Positions 1,435-27,715 are shown, counted from the first letter of the stretch. The stretch: 27,715 bases of DNA from Thermoplasmata archaeon (GCA_034667685.1 JAXDQU010000055.1:1-27715), one strand, 5' to 3'. Program-made: numbers and translations. The notes: generated from the sequence alone by a model not told the origin.

Positions 1435-1743
1435 ATGCGCCGCGTTCGAAAAGTCATTAGCTACGCCTGCACGGCGTGCTTCCTCATGTTCCCCTCCGCC
1501 GGCGAGGCGAAGGCGCACTACGCGGCGAAGCACCCGCGCCGCGCGACCCCGCCCGGGCCGCGCCGCGCGCGGAAGACGCAGACCGGCGCGATCCTGGAGG
1601 CGCTGCGCGGCGGCTCGCACACCGCGGCCGACGTCTCGCGCAAGACGAAGATCCCGCTCACGCGCGTCCACTCCCTGCTCTCGTACCTGCGCCGCCGCGG
1701 CCAGGTCAAGGGATTCAAGGACAAGCTCAAGGCCGTCGGCTAG
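1435..1743 (+). CDS. C2H2 zinc finger fused to a winged helix-turn-helix domain; putative regulator
   Basis: CTAC-x12-H-x4-H (CTACFLMFPSAGEAKAHYAAKH), a basic linker, then ILEALRGGSHTAADVSRKTKIPLTRVHSLLSYLRRRGQV, a TrmB-like wHTH pattern. Confidence 0.75.
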   Translation: MRRVRKVISYACTACFLMFPSAGEAKAHYAAKHPRRATPPGPRRARKTQTGAILEALRGGSHTAADVSRKTKIPLTRVHSLLSYLRRRGQVKGFKDKLKAVG

Positions 1744-1751
1744 GCCGCAGG

Positions 1752-1837
1752 AACACGAAGAGCACCAAGGCACGAAGCCACGAAGGCCCCGCTTCTTCGT
1801 GCTCTTCGTGGCTTCGTGCTCTTCGTGTTGACGTCGG
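1752..1837. repeat. Family A hairpin element (CACGAAG-unit inverted arrays); gene-less copy of the GxxExxY element
   Basis: Left arm 1752-1785 aacacgaag-agcaccaag-gcacgaag-ccacgaag; right arm 1795-1829 cttcgtgct-cttcgtgg-cttcgtgct-cttcgtgtt followed by gacgtcgg. 1795-1837 matches 19363-19405 at 42/43 positions. Confidence 0.92.
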
Positions 1838-1846
1838 CCCGCTGGC

Positions 1847-2695
1847 TCAGACGTCCTTGCTGTGGAAAATGGCCCACGCGCCCGCGAAGGGCAGGACGAT
1901 CCAGAGCGCCATCGCGATGCCGAAGTACGGCGCCTTCCACATGTCGGGCAGCGCCGTGCGGCCCAGGAAGCTCGTGATGCCCTGGAACCCCTCGATGGTC
2001 GTGGACGCGAGCCCCTCGTAGACGGTGTTCGGGTTGAGCCACTGCGTGACGATCAGCCAGTTGGGAAGCGCCTGCAGGTTGCGGTAACGCGAGCCCAGCG
2101 TGCTCACGAGCACGACGAAGACGAGGAGCTGCCAGACCAGCGTGCTGAAGAAGAACCACGCGCCGATGCTGCCCGCGATCGCGGTGCCGCGGCGGTTGAA
2201 CCACGACGAGAGGAAGGTCGTGATGCTGACCCACGCGGCGCCCCACGCGAGGCTCTCCACGAGGAAGACGAGCAGCGTGTTCACGTCGCCCGCGGCGCCG
2301 GTGCGCGCGATGACGAAGATGCCGCCCACGCCGAAGCCCGCGAGGATCGCCGTCGCGAGCACGCCGAAGAGGCCGAGCCACTTGCCCATGAGGACCTCGC
2401 CGCGGCGGATCGGCTGCGCGAGGAGAAGGCCCAGGCTGCCGCTCTCGCGCTCGCCGGCCAGCGTGCCGAAGCCAAGCATCAGCGCGAGGATCGGGAGCAT
2501 GAAGCCGCTGAAGGTGTCCATGAGGTTCAGCGTCGGCCCGATGCGCGCGAGGCCGAGCCCGGTCGACTGGTCGGCGGCGGCGGTGAACGCGCTCGTGAGC
2601 AGCGTCAGCACGAGGAACACCACGGAGACCGCGATGACCCAGGCGTTGCGCACGTTCTCCAGGTACTCCTTCTTGGCGACGGCCGTCCAGGTCAT
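1847..2695 (-). CDS. ABC-2 type transporter permease (NosY-like)
   Basis: AVAKKEY N-terminus, GERESGSLGLLLAQPIRRGEVLMGK motif, about 6 TM segments; abuts the ATPase gene. Confidence 0.88.
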   Translation of the reverse strand: MTWTAVAKKEYLENVRNAWVIAVSVVFLVLTLLTSAFTAAADQSTGLGLARIGPTLNLMDTFSGFMLPILALMLGFGTLAGERESGSLGLLLAQPIRRGEVLMGKWLGLFGVLATAILAGFGVGGIFVIARTGAAGDVNTLLVFLVESLAWGAAWVSITTFLSSWFNRRGTAIAGSIGAWFFFSTLVWQLLVFVVLVSTLGSRYRNLQALPNWLIVTQWLNPNTVYEGLASTTIEGFQGITSFLGRTALPDMWKAPYFGIAMALWIVLPFAGAWAIFHSKDV

Positions 2696-6164: not shown

Positions 6165-6247
6165 GGCGCTTCGCTTTCCGCCATCACGCCAAGACGCCAA
6201 CACGCCGCGTGTTGGCGTCTTGGCGTGATGGCGGAAAGCGAAGCGCC
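6165..6247. repeat. Family B perfect palindrome (41-bp arms, 1-nt centre)
   Basis: ggcgcttcgctttccgccatcacgccaagacgccaacacgc-C-gcgtgttggcgtcttggcgtgatggcggaaagcgaagcgcc; second copy at 27649-27715. Confidence 0.95.
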
Positions 6248-9827: not shown

Positions 9828-9897
9828 GGGCTCGGGGCTCTGGACTCAGGACTCTGGGCTCCGGAGCCCTGAGCCCCGAGTCCAGAGCCCCGAGCCC
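9828..9897. repeat. Family C hairpin: five 7-bp GGRCTCN units followed by their inverse
   Basis: gggctcg-gggctct-ggactca-ggactct-gggctcc | ggagccc-tgagccc-cgagtcc-agagccc-cgagccc; 35-bp arms, 3 mismatches, no loop. Confidence 0.92.
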
Positions 9898-10948: not shown

Positions 10949-11049
10949 CGCCTCCGGCGGGAGAAATCCCGAATCACGAATCTCCGAATCACGACGGAAA
11001 ACCCCGTGATTCGGAGATCCGTGATTCGGGTTTTCTCCCGCCGGAGGCG
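10949..11049. repeat. Family D hairpin (45-bp arms with GAATCAC-type subrepeats)
   Basis: 10949-10993 cgcctccggcgggagaaatcccgaatcacgaatctccgaatcacg pairs with 11005-11049 with 2 mismatches; 11-nt loop. Confidence 0.92.
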
Positions 11050-18453: not shown

Positions 18454-18756
18454 CTAGAGCCCCCCGCGCTTCATCGCGGCGGCGATGGTCTGGGCGGTCA
18501 GTCGGATGTCGAAGCCGGTCAGTTCGTAGTACTTCATCGCTTTCCCGTCCTGTGATAGCTCCAGGGCTCCGGTCACGAGGCCCGCCGCCTCCAGCTTCTC
18601 CAGGTGCATGTAGAGAAGGGGGCGGCTAAGCTCGAGGCGGCGCGCAAGCTCGCTGACGTACTCGCGCCCCTGGGCGAGGGCCGCGACGATGCGCAGCCGA
18701 TGCGGGTTCCCCAGGGCGTCCGCGATCGCGAGCAGGCTCTCCGCGTCGAGGGTCAT
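18454..18756 (-). CDS. ArsR/SmtB-family winged-helix regulator
   Basis: ALGNPHRLRIVAAL...YVSELARRLELSRPLLYMHLEKLEAAGLV...KYY. Confidence 0.9.
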   Translation of the reverse strand: MTLDAESLLAIADALGNPHRLRIVAALAQGREYVSELARRLELSRPLLYMHLEKLEAAGLVTGALELSQDGKAMKYYELTGFDIRLTAQTIAAAMKRGGL

Positions 18757-18758
18757 GG

Positions 18759-18784
18759 CACCTGTAAGATGGAGCTTACATGTG
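18759..18784. promoter_or_regulatory. Putative ArsR autoregulatory operator
   Basis: CAC-c-TGTAAG-N6-CTTACA-t-GTG palindrome starting 2 nt upstream of the ArsR ATG. Confidence 0.65.
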
Positions 18785-18830
18785 ACAGAAAAGGCTGTTG
18801 GTCGGTTCGTTGAACAAGGGAACTCGGCCG

Positions 18831-19405
18831 CGTCAACACGAAGAGCACGAAGTCACGAAGGCACGAAGACGAAATGCTCGGAGGGCTTTGCATCGGGGGC
18901 ATTCACATAGCGGCGGATGCCCTGGCGGAACAAGGGCGAGCGGAAGTTCACGAGAAACGCCAGCGGCAGGCCTGTGTGGCGGAGGTACGAGAGCACTTGG
19001 GCCTCCGCGTAGCGGAACGGCTCGGTGTTGGCCTTCACTTCGACCAGCACGCGTCGATCCACGATAAGGTCCGTCCGCAAGGCGCCCTCGATGCGCAGAC
19101 CCTCGTACTCCAGGGGAAAGCGGGTCTCCGCTTGGACCACGTGCCCGATGCGCCGGAGCGAGTGGGCCAGGAACTTCGCGTAGTGCCGCTCTCGAAGCGA
19201 TGGGCCAAGCGCCTTGTGCAGGCGGAAGCAGGCATCCACGACGCGCGCCGCGGTGCCCTCGGTCTCTGGGTCGGTCAGCGAGGTGGGCCGAAAAGGATCG
19301 GGCATCGACGATGCGTGGGCATCGGGATCATCAACCTTCTCCGGGAATCGTGCTACCCCGCCCTTCGCGCTCTTCGTGGCTTCGTGCTCTTCGTGTTGAC
19401 GTCGG
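18831..19405. mobile_element. GxxExxY nuclease element bounded by family A inverted repeat arrays
   Basis: Perfect 22-bp terminal inverted repeat cgtcaacacgaagagcacgaag at 18831-18852 and 19380-19401, extended inward by further CACGAAG units, enclosing only the nuclease gene and its upstream region. Mobility is inferred. Confidence 0.65.
18853..19305 (-). CDS. GxxExxY family PD-(D/E)XK nuclease-like protein
   Basis: LHKALGPSLRERHY (variant GxxExxY), RTDLIVDRRVLVEVK (D...ExK), AQVLSYL, LVNF, GIRRYV. Confidence 0.92.
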   Translation of the reverse strand: MPDPFRPTSLTDPETEGTAARVVDACFRLHKALGPSLRERHYAKFLAHSLRRIGHVVQAETRFPLEYEGLRIEGALRTDLIVDRRVLVEVKANTEPFRYAEAQVLSYLRHTGLPLAFLVNFRSPLFRQGIRRYVNAPDAKPSEHFVFVPS

Positions 19406-19422
19406 ACCGCGACTCTCCCAGG

Positions 19423-19854
19423 CTAGGCCCTGCAGCTCGCGCTCCCCGCATCCCGCATCGTGATCCCGTTCGTCCCGTCCACCGCGAACGTCGCCATCGC
19501 GAAGCCGTCCTGCCCGCACGCGCGGGTGTCGAGGCCGACGCGGCCGCTGGCGGCGGCGCCATTGATGGAGAACGTCGCGCGCACCTCGTAGCGCGCCGCC
19601 TTGAGGTTCACCACCGTCTTCTCGACGCTGCTGTGCGCGGGGACCTTGAACGACGAGGCGGCGATGGAGGCGCCCGACGAGTCGAAGATCGCGACGTTCG
19701 CCTGCACCTCGCTCCCGCCCGCGTTCTCCACGTGGACGAAGATCACCTGCGTGGGCGCGGCGGCGGAGAGCGGGCCGCCCGGGAACACGAGCGCCGCGCC
19801 CACCAGCGCGCCCGCCACGAAGGCGACGCCCGCGTACAGGAGCACCCGGTTCAC
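19423..19854 (-). CDS. Secreted or membrane-anchored small beta-rich protein
   Basis: GTG start inferred at 19854; hydrophobic N-terminus; two Cys near the C-terminus. Confidence 0.65.
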   Translation of the reverse strand: MNRVLLYAGVAFVAGALVGAALVFPGGPLSAAAPTQVIFVHVENAGGSEVQANVAIFDSSGASIAASSFKVPAHSSVEKTVVNLKAARYEVRATFSINGAAASGRVGLDTRACGQDGFAMATFAVDGTNGITMRDAGSASCRA

Positions 19855-19880
19855 GACGGCGCAGACGAGGCGCGGCTCTT

Positions 19881-21635
19881 CTAGATATCCACGCCGACGC
19901 CCGCCGCCCCGTCCACCCACGTCGCGCCGTCCGCGCGCGAGCCCAGCGTGGGCGCCGGCGCCTGGTGGCGGTCCTGCCCGCCCTCGTCGAGGAGCACGCC
20001 GACGCTCGCGCCACCGTACCCCTGCGCCCACTGGGCCGCGGTGTACGCGTCGTCGCCCGCGCGGTCGTCGAGGATCGCGAGCGCGGGGCCCGGCGGCGTG
20101 GCGAGGCCGTACGCGGCGCCTTGTCCCGTCGCTAGCTGGCCGATCCCGGCGACGTTGCCCGGCTCGACCTCGGGGCCGAGCGTGTACGCGTCGTCGCCGC
20201 CCTGCTCCAGGAGCAGCGTGAGGGCGCCCACGCCCGCCGCGCCCTGGCCGCCCTGCCGGACGTGCGGGCCCATGAAGTACGAATCGTGGCCGCCCTCCTC
20301 GTCGAGGATCGCGGTGCCGTCCGCCTCCGCGCTGATCTCGATGGGGCCCGCGAAGACGCCGAGGTCCGAGCCCAGGAGGCTGATCGACGTCTCGTTGGCG
20401 GTGTAGGTGTCGTCGCCGCCGCGCTCCAGCATCAGGCCGATGCCCTCCGCGCCGCCGTAGATGAAGCCGTCGAGCCCGTCCTGCTGATAGCGATCGTCCC
20501 CGCCCTCGTCCACGAGGATGCCCGCGCCGCCCACCGCGCTGGCCTTCGTGGCGATGCTGCCCACGCTCGTGGAGAGGTCGGTGGCGATCGGGCCGCTCGG
20601 GCTCTCGTAGATATCATTCCCGGCGCCTGCGTCGTCGAGCATGCCGAAGCCGACGTTGCCCGAGCCCTGGCCGAACTGCGAGACGTTGTAGAGGTCGCTG
20701 CCGCCCGCATCGTAGAGGATGCCGGCGCTCGCGAGCGCGGCGCCCTGCGCGACGCCGTAGGCGCGGTACGTGTCGTCGCCCGCGCCCAGGTCCAAGGCGA
20801 GGGCCGGGAGCGCCGCCGCGCCGCCCGCGTTGTCGAGGTACGTGTCGGAGCCGCCCTGGTCCACCTGCAGGACGTACGTGTCGGTGTACGTGTCGTCGCA
20901 CGCGCCGCCGATCACGATGAACGGCAGGTCGAGCATGCGGTCGCACGAGGCGGTCGTCGCGGGCGCCTGGAAGTGAGACACCGCGTGCGCCAACGGCATC
21001 GCGGCCGCGGAGATGGCGGCGCGGTCCACGCGCGCGAGCGCGGCCCGGTCGGCGGCCCACTGCGCCGCGGCCGCGGGCGGAAGGCCCTGCGCGGGCGCGG
21101 TGCCCGCGAGGCTCACGAGCATCGCCGTGAGCGCGGGGTTCGCCAGCAACGTCGCGCGGTCCGAGGGCGAGACGATGCGCGCGCTCGCCAGCGCGGACGC
21201 CGTGGCCGCGTCGACGAGCGGCGTTATCGCATCGCGCCACGCCGGCGTCATCGCCGCGGTCTGCTCGTGCACGCGCGCCCGCAGCGCGTCGTCAACGGGC
21301 AGGCCGATGCCGTCATAGAGACGGAGGATCGCCGCTTCGAGGCTCGGGGACGCGGCGGCGACCGCGCCCGACGCCGCGGGGAATCCGCCCTCGCGCAGCG
21401 CGACCGCGGCCACCGCCTCGACGCCCGCCTGCCCGCGCGGCACCGCGTCGAGCTCCGCCTTCACGGCGTCGGCTTTCTCGCGCGCCACGACGACGCGGCA
21501 CGCGGCGTCCGGGCATGCGGCGGCGAGGGCGCGCGCATCCAAGGGCGGAGCGGCCGGCGCCAGGCGCAGCGCGGAAGCGCCCGAGGCGGCGAGGAGAAGA
21601 AGGGCGAGAAGGAGCGTGCGCGTGGCTGGGGACAC
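19881..21635 (-). CDS. Secreted protein with about 10 D/E-x-x-G-x-D-x-Y repeats (putative Ca-binding beta-solenoid)
   Basis: Signal peptide; DQGGSDTY, DLGAGDDTY, DAGGSDLY, DEGGDDRY, ERGGDDTY, EQGGDDAY, DRAGDDAY interleaved with GQG/AQG and G.L.D motifs. Confidence 0.8.
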   Translation of the reverse strand: MSPATRTLLLALLLLAASGASALRLAPAAPPLDARALAAACPDAACRVVVAREKADAVKAELDAVPRGQAGVEAVAAVALREGGFPAASGAVAAASPSLEAAILRLYDGIGLPVDDALRARVHEQTAAMTPAWRDAITPLVDAATASALASARIVSPSDRATLLANPALTAMLVSLAGTAPAQGLPPAAAAQWAADRAALARVDRAAISAAAMPLAHAVSHFQAPATTASCDRMLDLPFIVIGGACDDTYTDTYVLQVDQGGSDTYLDNAGGAAALPALALDLGAGDDTYRAYGVAQGAALASAGILYDAGGSDLYNVSQFGQGSGNVGFGMLDDAGAGNDIYESPSGPIATDLSTSVGSIATKASAVGGAGILVDEGGDDRYQQDGLDGFIYGGAEGIGLMLERGGDDTYTANETSISLLGSDLGVFAGPIEISAEADGTAILDEEGGHDSYFMGPHVRQGGQGAAGVGALTLLLEQGGDDAYTLGPEVEPGNVAGIGQLATGQGAAYGLATPPGPALAILDDRAGDDAYTAAQWAQGYGGASVGVLLDEGGQDRHQAPAPTLGSRADGATWVDGAAGVGVDI

Positions 21636-26538: not shown

Positions 26539-27588
26539 TTGAAGGTCCTGGCCCGCGAGCCCGAGGAGGGCCGCGTCAAGCTGCGCATCGACTCGCTCGA
26601 CGACCTCTGGCACCTGCGCGAGCTGGCGAGCCCGGGCGACGTGGCGACCGCGCTGACGTGGCGCACCGCGGAGCTTGACACGAAGGGCGCGGAGCGCGCG
26701 GGCAAGGCGGAGAAGCGCGCCATGACGCTCGCGGTCAAGGTCGAGCGCGTCGAGTGGGACGCCTTCTCCAACCGGCTGCGCCTGCTCGGGCCGATCGTCG
26801 AGGGTCCGCAGGACGTCGGAAGCTATCACACGCTCGTCGTGGAGCCCGGCACGGAGATCACGATCCAGAAGCCGCGCGGGTTCCGCGCGCACCACCTGGA
26901 GCGCATCGAGGAGGCCGTCGCCGCGACCGCGAGGCCGCTCGTGACGTTCCTCGCCATCGAGGAGAACGAGGCCGTGGTCGCCCTGCTGCGGCAGTACGGC
27001 GTGCAGCGCATGGCCGAGGTGTTCGGCCATCAGTCGGGCAAACAATATGCGACGAGCCGCGCCGAGGAGGAGGCGTTCTTCGACGAGACGCTCATGGCGC
27101 TGCGCGACTATCGACCCGAGGGCGCGCCGCTCCTGGTGCTCGGGCCGGGCTTCGCCAAGGAGCGCTTCCTCGCGCACGCCCGGGCCAAGCAGCCCGCGCT
27201 CGTGAAGGGCGCGGCCATCGAGGCGACGGGCCAGGCCGGCATGGCGGGCGTCCACGAGGCGATCCGTCGCGGGAGCGTGGAGCGCGTGGCGAAGGAGACG
27301 CGCGTGGGCCGCGAGACGGCGCTGCTGGAGCGCTTCTTCGAGGCGCTCGCCAAGGGGGCGCTCGTGGCGTACGGCGCCGACGAGGTGCGCCGCGTCACGC
27401 AGATGGGCGCCGCGGACGTGGTGCTCGTCGCGGACCATCTCGTGCGCGAGGGACCGGGCGAGGCGATGCTGGAGCTGGCGCGCGGCACCGGCGCGCAGGC
27501 GCACGTCATCAGCACGCTGCACGACGCGGGCGCGAGGTTCGACGCGCTCGGGGGCGTCGGCGCGCTGCTGCGATATCAGCCTGCATAG
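26539..27588 (+). CDS. pelA: mRNA surveillance protein Pelota (Dom34)
   Basis: IDSLDDLWHL, FSNRLRLLG.I, GSYHTL, GPGFAK, AYG.DEV, GGVGALLRY. TTG at 26539 (MKVLARE) is the probable start. Confidence 0.93.
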   Translation: MKVLAREPEEGRVKLRIDSLDDLWHLRELASPGDVATALTWRTAELDTKGAERAGKAEKRAMTLAVKVERVEWDAFSNRLRLLGPIVEGPQDVGSYHTLVVEPGTEITIQKPRGFRAHHLERIEEAVAATARPLVTFLAIEENEAVVALLRQYGVQRMAEVFGHQSGKQYATSRAEEEAFFDETLMALRDYRPEGAPLLVLGPGFAKERFLAHARAKQPALVKGAAIEATGQAGMAGVHEAIRRGSVERVAKETRVGRETALLERFFEALAKGALVAYGADEVRRVTQMGAADVVLVADHLVREGPGEAMLELARGTGAQAHVISTLHDAGARFDALGGVGALLRYQPA

Positions 27589-27648: not shown

Positions 27649-27715
27649 CGCTTCGCTTGCCGCCATCACGCCAAGACGCCAACACGCGGCGTGTTGGCGT
27701 CTTGGCGTGATGGCG
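27649..27715. repeat. Family B palindrome, second copy, truncated by the window end
   Basis: cgcttcgcttgccgccatcacgccaagacgccaacacgc-G-gcgtgttggcgtcttggcgtgatggcg; differs from the 6167-6233 copy only at the centre and one arm base. Confidence 0.93.

Follow-up and report, generated by a model that had tools for sequence, protein, structure and literature searches.

A GxxExxY nuclease gene enclosed in a tandem-repeat palindrome with many gene-less copies in a Thermoplasmata archaeon

A nuclease gene within a palindrome and its gene-less relatives

A DNA stretch of 27,715 nucleotides (nt) from a Thermoplasmata archaeon (GCA_034667685.1 JAXDQU010000055.1:1-27715; referred to as the window) was analysed, and a palindromic cassette of 582 nt (18826-19407, minus strand) was found in which a gene for a GxxExxY-type PD-(D/E)XK nuclease occupies the loop between two inverted arrays of CACGAAG units. 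The same genome contains 33 complete hairpins of this family that hold no gene, and homologs of the nuclease gene lie between comparable inverted arrays in other archaea and in many bacterial phyla. On balance, we lean towards regarding the cassette as the gene-bearing member of a selfish family of DNA palindromes with non-autonomous gene-less derivatives, whose nuclease would act on its own arms and whose copying would be left to host repair. In the following, G000 denotes the source genome (3.48 Mb, 71% G+C, 124 contigs, 99% complete), other G numbers the comparison genomes, C numbers contigs, L numbers homolog loci, and X numbers metagenome contigs.

The cassette is ordered as outer clamp, octamer arm, gene-holding loop, octamer arm and outer clamp. 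The left outer terminus (GGCCGCGTCAA, 18826-18836) is followed by a left arm of four tandem CACGAAG units separated by spacers of 1-2 nt (18837-18868), whereas the right arm, composed of CTTCGCG and three CTTCGTG units (19363-19395), is the inverse of the left one and is followed by the right outer terminus (TTGACGTCGGAC, 19396-19407). The termini, GGCCG-CGTCAA ... TTGACG-TCGGAC, are the same as those of the gene-less copies, and the outer 12-mers of 33 copies gave a family consensus of GGCCG-N3-5-AA. A repeat search of the window returned 18831-18860 / 19372-19401 as an inverted repeat of 30 nt with 97% complementarity, 511 nt apart, and the complementarity was perfect over the outer 22 nt of the arms (18831-18852 / 19380-19401). 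The arm pair showed 29 matches in 30 positions, and 400 random placements in the genome gave flank-versus-flank scores with a maximum of 33 and a mean of 21.4, the window pair being scored on a slightly different scale from the random placements. The arrangement described by the original prediction, a lone gene between inverted CACGAAG arrays with perfect 22-bp termini, was confirmed and lies beyond chance.

The nuclease gene (18853-19305, minus strand; profile-matched core 18904-19248) is intact, encodes 150 amino acids (aa) and is the sole credible open reading frame (ORF) between the arms; its final five codons and the stop codon fall within the left arm. The protein matched TIGR04256 (E 5.7e-26, 91.2 bits with a cut-off of 35, profile positions 4-116 of 116) and PF13366 PDDEXK_3 (E 1.5e-26, 93.5 bits with a cut-off of 22). 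In an alignment of 28 family members, D60 and K72 were invariant and E70 was conserved in at least 90%; the window protein has all three residues, and its catalytic D...ExK is intact (RTDLIV...VEVK). The predicted assignment to GxxExxY was supported in its family profiles and catalytic residues but not in the eponymous glycine, which is at least 90% conserved among the 28 sequences and is replaced by serine in the window protein (SLRERHY), with E20 and Y23 kept.

The AlphaFold2 model of the nuclease core (pLDDT 95.2) showed the order helix-helix-three strands-helix-strand. Foldseek against the Protein Data Bank (PDB) returned nothing below E 1e-3, the best matches being weak ones to Cas4 SSO0001 (E 3e-3), the AddAB nuclease domain, the R2 endonuclease and Hjc, and a PDB sequence search with the family profile gave Cas4 4r5q alone (E 0.33). 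PADLOC yielded one weak domain-level match (RTasPDDEXK, E 1.3e-3), and PHROGs had no match for the nuclease. The family comprises 35,264 representatives at 50% identity (profile E<=1e-3). The top-scoring representatives (P0001-P0023), of about 250-295 aa, contain two matched stretches; they represent fused tandem GxxExxY proteins or, alternatively, gene calls with read-through, and fused two-domain forms would point to a dimeric nuclease. In the survey PMC3424549, GxxExxY is entered with the function 'Unknown' and with 'multiple transfers, mixed clades'.

Adjacent CACGAAG units were detected at 43 loci of the genome, comprising 33 complete gene-less hairpins, 1 gene-bearing hairpin, 8 copies interrupted by the end of a contig and 2 pairs that probably reflect chance (the C91 locus was counted once, though it holds two hairpins). 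The gene-less palindromes presumed by the original prediction are therefore abundant, with 33 complete copies and a further 8 at contig ends. Each gene-less module is about 95 nt long and consists of GGCCG-N-AA-(CACGAAG-N)x4, a loop of 8-20 nt and the inverse of the arm. The exact unit CACGAAG was found in 215 of 244 units (88%), and the commonest arm, in which four units are separated by G, C and AG in this order, occurred 8 times among 66 arms. The mean pairwise identity of the hairpins was 0.83 in the arms versus 0.52 in the loops. One gene-less copy is located in the window right behind a stop codon (1743-1839); folded as single-stranded DNA, it was predicted to reach -39.5 kcal/mol (z -8.45). 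At C9:27177-27368 the palindromes are nested, a CACGAAG hairpin (27231-27294) being placed between inverted arrays of GCCTCA hexamers.

Two further GxxExxY genes are present in the genome (C21:31110-31499 and C11:24015-24392), and each has its own inverted repeats, of 46 nt at 91% identity for C21 and of 23 nt at 96% for C11. By short-query BLAST, close inverted pairs of the C21-type arm without a gene were found at a further 10 or more sites, and those of the C11-type arm at 2. The three intact GxxExxY genes of the genome are thus paired with three different arm families, and a fourth family has a truncated gene alone. The gene-less hairpin at 10949-11049 of the window belongs to another family than CACGAAG (CGCCTCCGGCGGG...CCGAATCACG), whose gene-bearing relatives are found at G003:C6 (L026) and, as a truncated copy, at G000:C60. 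The loop of the latter hairpin (C60:1211-1579) holds an internally deleted GxxExxY remnant, in which the N-terminal and C-terminal parts are fused (24 bits, below the cut-off) and which appears to be a decay intermediate. The gene-less copies would be internal-deletion derivatives of gene-bearing cassettes, and intermediates of this kind exist.

The cassette adjoins the start of an ArsR/HTH_5 gene (arsR; 18454-18756, minus strand), and on its other side it faces the stop end of an ORF of 202 aa with no family match (19423-20031, minus strand). No transposase or integrase family was found among the 29 window ORFs scanned against Pfam, which agrees with the predicted setting between arsR and the 3' end of an unrelated gene, and Rfam gave no match at E<=10 within 18700-19500. 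The orthologous site could be located in three congeners (G003, G001 and G004), and G002 gave no match. In G003, a spacer of about 105 nt is all that separates arsR from the downstream gene, and the element is absent from it; it is absent also from the orthologous spacers of G001 and G004. An empty site between arsR and the gene at 19423, proposed as a check of the original prediction, was thereby found in all three. The G004 site (L035, about 2100-2200) carries a direct, non-inverted tandem array of the GAGGCC type and no gene.

The gene-less hairpins at 1743-1839 and 10949-11049 were both absent from the orthologous spacers of G003, which has 8 or more copies of the 10949-11049 family at other loci. 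At the best-aligned empty site (window 1743-1848 versus G003), the insert lies between the stop codon and a conserved TCAGACGTCC, and the other two empty sites were too diverged for junction placement; the flank identity to the congeners was 67-83%. A soil metagenome relative of about 94% identity (X5) carries the element together with the gene at the cassette locus, and a low-depth contig of another study (X3, soil metagenome, depth 3.5) carries the cassette locus minus 259 nt of the gene. Metagenome joints of 18868 to 19363/19364 were considered as empty alleles and rejected: their sides measured 23-34 nt and their loops contained foreign letters, which identified them as gene-less paralogous hairpins elsewhere.

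Arms of homologs and a second cargo

The GxxExxY family was present in 14 of 41 genomes of the phylum (Thermoplasmatota). The arms of homologs were assessed by aligning the left flank to the reverse complement of the right flank. As a result, 25 of 30 Thermoplasmatota loci scored 37-119, compared with the maximum of 33 for the 400 random placements in G000. The bacterial sample consisted of 68 loci from many phyla collected with one archaeal protein as the query, and it is therefore biased towards relatives of that protein; of the 60 loci whose flanks were long enough, 53 scored above the 95th percentile of 210 shifted controls, and a score of 36 or more was reached by 41 of the 60 loci versus 1 of the 210 controls. 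Flanking by inverted short-unit arrays, which the original prediction had expected of homologs, is accordingly the usual state in both sets of loci. An arm is made up of 3-4 units in tandem; these are mostly 8 nt long, and a common core of CAC-N-AAG recurs from archaea to Bacteroidota (CACGAAG 14, CACAAAG 12, CACCAAG 8, CACAGAG 6, plus others). The gene was always nearer to the downstream arm. Measured to the profile match, the median gap was about 20 nt on the downstream side, whereas on the upstream side it was 45 nt in bacteria and 109 nt in archaea.

A quick maximum-likelihood tree was built from 72 proteins; the unit type required 31 changes on it, compared with 32-42 in 500 label shuffles. 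Well-supported sister proteins share arms and archaeal rows are interleaved with bacterial ones, the deeper nodes being without resolution. The expected tracking of the protein tree by the repeat type was thus seen, but in a weak form. The label of an archaeal system did not hold: the same design and the CAC-N-AAG unit occur in many bacterial phyla, and the element is widespread and crosses the domains.

Arrays of three CACRRAG units were found in 5 of 14 relatives with a GxxExxY gene versus 0 of 27 without it (reversed control, 0-2 per genome); because the relatives are kin, this co-occurrence is a pattern and not a statistic. In Azospirillum brasilense, one gene-bearing and seven gene-less hairpins share one unit type, and a Hymenobacter genome contained 22 arrays versus 0 for the reversed control. 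These carriers are cultured, so experiments are feasible. The lone GxxExxY gene of A. brasilense (ATCC 49958; L113, G041:C11:192941-193291) has one in-frame TAA in the profile match and may be inactive, although the seven gene-less hairpins persist. Hymenobacter saemangeumensis possesses 6 GxxExxY genes.

A long-range inverted-repeat scan of the genome also revealed a 43-nt inverted repeat with zero mismatch (C124:75964-76006 / 76423-76465), which encloses a four-helix-bundle gene of TIGR02436 (C124:75964-76465, E 4e-15). In line with a Coxiella abstract, we take the members of TIGR02436 to be the ORF family of 23S rRNA intervening sequences (IVSs). Inverted arrays with a score of 36 or more flanked 15 of 26 four-helix-bundle loci of relatives (L149-L175) versus 0 of 86 controls; G012 has 13 four-helix-bundle genes. 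The gene of this type on C115 is flanked by arrays of GCCTCA hexamers, which are also found without a gene at several sites. Where a period was detectable in the arms, it was 8-10 in 30 of 31 GxxExxY loci, whereas it was 6 or 12 in 10 of 13 four-helix-bundle loci; at the threshold used, a period could not be detected for 17 of the 25 archaeal and 18 of the 41 bacterial GxxExxY arms. The arm design goes with the cargo protein, which argues for a functional coupling of protein and arms.

A leader motif, CGATTCCCGGAG (19339-19350, minus strand), is located 33 nt 5' of the start codon of the nuclease gene and immediately inside the 5' arm. This 12-mer occurred 4 times in the 3.48-Mb genome (window 19339-19350, C21:31045, C124:76019 and C11:73361) versus 0 times for the reversed control. 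Three of the four occurrences lie immediately inside the 5' arm of cargo hairpins that differ in arms and cargo; the fourth, at C11:73361, has no detectable hairpin and is upstream of two small genes resembling a toxin-antitoxin-type pair. Possibly the motif is a promoter or leader module that these loci share. The gene-less loops TCCCAGGA and ATTCGCGGAGG resembled it by eye only and were not used as evidence.

Candidate mechanism and alternative explanations

If the cassette is a selfish palindrome, its nuclease would bind its own arms, either as iterated octamers or in the cruciform or hairpin form that they adopt, and would cut DNA there. A PD-(D/E)XK enzyme only hydrolyses DNA, and the spread would therefore have to depend on repair by the host instead of transposase chemistry. 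Host recombination and repair would convert the breaks in the arms into copying; gene conversion between copies could keep the arms uniform and could, in the manner of homing, re-seed the gene; and further loci may arise when the element is occasionally captured at a new intergenic site.

Several points weigh against the reading as a selfish palindrome. Nuclease activity, arm binding and movement are all inferred. At 91 bits, versus 102-145 for most, the window protein diverges more than any other intact member of the set. Clear arms are missing at 5 of the 30 archaeal and 7 of the 60 bacterial loci, the unit type follows the protein tree weakly, and relatives share labels. All CACGAAG hairpin copies differ from one another, which gives no hint of a recent burst. 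At window 1743-1848 versus G003, the one cleanly aligned empty site, a target-site duplication was not visible, and recombination scars could also yield 'empty sites' between species that are 70-83% identical. Hairpins of a 9-nt CACAGAGG(A/T) unit are abundant in the genome, with dozens of matches (e.g. C12:27734-27801, C21:63993-64062 and C52:1380-1445), and no gene-bearing copy of this family was found in the 99%-complete assembly; it follows that gene-less families are able to survive where a cognate gene is missing, or that they are served in trans. By tblastn, the GxxExxY family was found in 8 of 72,556 plasmid records, all typed non-mobilizable, and had no match in 50,697 phage records, which leaves the horizontal route without explanation.

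A different account would place the function of the arms at the RNA level. In the sense RNA (18820-19412), the arms were predicted to close as a stem of about 45 bp (-282 kcal/mol, z -5.0), and the cassette is co-directional with both neighbour genes. Such a stem could be cut by a double-strand-specific RNase, by which an IVS-like cassette would be excised from the host transcript or insulated from it; the job of the nuclease would then be unrelated to the arms, and the gene-less hairpins would be decayed cassettes. The TIGR02436 genes in analogous hairpins (15 of 26 loci versus 0 of 86 controls) fit this account, as does the Coxiella burnetii IVS, presented in its abstract as a selfish element of 428 nt with an S23p ORF (PMC4990558). 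However, the stem mismatches, oriented by the gene, were G.T versus A.C at 33:28 in the 25 archaeal loci and at 49:53 in the 47 bacterial loci, so that G.U-compatible pairs were not in excess on the sense strand. Among the sequencing runs listed for the stretch, none was an RNA run. A bare stem needs no conserved unit, yet CAC-N-AAG spans archaea to Bacteroidota and 88% of the units of this genome are identical. The dependence of unit length on the cargo family also speaks against an RNA-level role, which moreover leaves the restriction of arrays to gene-carrying genomes without explanation. The balanced mismatches and the conserved unit sequence favour recognition at the DNA level, beside which RNA processing may occur; as the whole explanation of the cassette, an RNA-level role is unlikely.

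The hairpins could also be host elements, such as terminators, mRNA stabilisers or nucleoid sites, whose loops serve small GxxExxY-like selfish genes as safe landing sites; the gene would then be the mobile part, and the hairpins would have been in place before it. At least 16 of the 33 gene-less copies follow a stop codon at a distance of 10-30 nt, according to a gene map made by a crude filter for G+C at third codon positions on stop-to-stop ORFs, in which the 8 'inside ORF' calls are unreliable. This position is what a host element might show, and a maximum of one gene-bearing copy per hairpin family and the existence of an orphan family without a gene are in line with it. Nevertheless, the orthologous spacers of sister species are without the hairpins, and arrays were found in 0 of 27 relatives without the gene. 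The arms travel with the gene between phyla and are shared by sister proteins, and the internally deleted genes in hairpins indicate decay from gene-bearing to gene-less and not the reverse. A host origin of the hairpins is thus quite improbable.

The least credible explanation, and a very improbable one, is that the palindromes are fast-evolving tandem repeats made by replication slippage and moved from lineage to lineage by homologous recombination of their flanks without any element-specific mobility, the GxxExxY association reflecting shared ancestry of a few loci: the missing target-site duplication, the lack of identical copies and the flank identity of 67-83% are compatible with it, but it cannot account for 40 copies dispersed in the genome with termini and ordered spacers (G, C, AG) in common, for the same unit around homologs in unrelated phyla, or for a cargo-specific unit length.

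Relation to known systems and other hairpins of the window

Repetitive extragenic palindromic (REP) and REPIN elements, which are accompanied by a RAYT gene, are described in Bertels & Rainey 2011 (PMC3116915). The cassette resembles them in that a single-copy nuclease-type gene is flanked by inverted short repeats, the repeat is dispersed as gene-less intergenic palindromic doublets, and each paralog has its own repeat family with one gene copy per family. In contrast, the enzyme of the cassette is a PD-(D/E)XK hydrolase of about 125 aa, whereas RAYT is an HUH/Y1 (IS200-like) transposase; the arms are made of 3-4 tandem units of 8-9 nt, whereas REPs are single sequences of 20-40 nt; the cassette gene sits in the loop of one hairpin; and archaeal and bacterial proteins are mixed on the GxxExxY tree, whereas inheritance of RAYTs is described in the literature as largely vertical. 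A test of the window protein for an HUH/Y1 transposase was negative, the PD-(D/E)XK families being its only family matches. To our knowledge, the established chemistry of a PD-(D/E)XK nuclease makes it incapable by itself of RAYT-like strand transfer, and the mechanism therefore cannot be that of RAYT. The analogy to a REPIN system drawn by the original prediction is well supported in its distributional logic, namely gene-less copies, flanking arrays and empty sites, but the RAYT mechanism is excluded by chemistry.

The 23S rRNA IVSs are likewise cassettes of about 0.4-0.6 kb with a long stem around one small ORF and are regarded as selfish, and their S23p/four-helix-bundle family (TIGR02436) is found in this genome in a hairpin of the same design as the cassette (C124). 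IVSs are excised from the transcript by RNase III. Unlike an IVS, the cassette is located between protein-coding genes and not in helix 25 or 45 of 23S rRNA, and it has a nuclease cargo, tandem-octamer arms, many gene-less copies and no sign of RNA-level stem selection. Terminal inverted repeats, and the many short non-coding derivatives and deletion intermediates beside rare coding copies, recall a miniature inverted-repeat transposable element (MITE) and its autonomous parent. However, the cassette differs from MITEs and insertion sequences (ISs) in having no DDE, serine, tyrosine or HUH transposase and no visible target-site duplication; its inverted repeats are iterated units, and an entire non-coding copy is one hairpin. 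With no HUH enzyme, a location outside rRNA, and neither a transposase nor a duplication, the cassette fails the defining tests of REPIN/RAYT, rRNA IVS and MITE/IS, respectively. It is best read as working like a blend of REPIN/RAYT and IVS, with the logic of the former, the anatomy of the latter and an unrelated enzyme.

Homing endonucleases, whether free-standing or intron-borne, include PD-(D/E)XK examples such as I-Ssp6803I. The cassette is similar to them as a small selfish nuclease gene possibly spreading by cutting of a cognate site, with the gene-bearing allele as the repair template. Homing sites are normally unique conserved genes, whereas the candidate site here is a dispersed palindrome whose copies are mostly gene-less. 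The STRR (short tandemly repeated repetitive) sequences of filamentous cyanobacteria are tandem intergenic units of the 7-nt class that often form hairpins, and the cassette arms, as tandem short intergenic units able to form hairpins, are similar. We know of no gene association described for STRR sequences, and no paper linking them to a nuclease was found. A description of the gene-in-hairpin arrangement was not found in the literature either, subscription journals and bioRxiv supplements being beyond the reach of the search.

A broader proposal is put forward tentatively, as one that we think could be right but would not back over its denial. GxxExxY nucleases and four-helix-bundle 'IVS' proteins may form one cross-domain class of protein-coding palindromes that multiply without a transposase. 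Each protein would recognise the repeat unit of the arms that enclose it, which measures 8-10 nt in the case of the nuclease and mostly 6 nt in that of the helical protein, and would provoke breaks or stalled forks that host repair resolves into copying; the 23S rRNA IVSs, and perhaps the STRR-like tandem-unit hairpins of many genomes, would then be special cases or debris of this class. A family of 35,000 clusters would thereby acquire a role.

The specific and conserved DNA architecture provides GxxExxY/PDDEXK_3 with a testable substrate, its own arms, and with a testable biology, that of a selfish palindrome with non-autonomous copies. It also offers a candidate explanation for the dense intergenic tandem-unit hairpins that break assemblies, 8 CACGAAG copies ending contigs here, and links these hairpins to the ORF-bearing rRNA intervening sequences, which have long been without explanation. 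Should the nuclease be specific for iterated 8-mers, through their sequence or their structure, it would represent a new kind of DNA-recognition module.

Apart from these elements, the window contains eRF1 and NFACT genes, which are consistent with an archaeal origin, and hairpins of other unit types. Hairpins of 8-nt CGCCAACA/CGCGAACA units with GCTTCGCTT clamps are located at 6165-6247 and 27661-27715; in the window, 41 nt of the hairpin are perfect, and the contig ends with one of the copies. The same family was observed elsewhere in G000 (C8:75996, C17:44243, C34:1353 and C85:6476), and no gene-bearing copy of it was seen. A further hairpin, at 9828-9897, is built of GGGCTC/GGACTC units with arms of 35 nt at 91% identity, and this unit type also flanks a four-helix-bundle gene at G000:C49 (L164).

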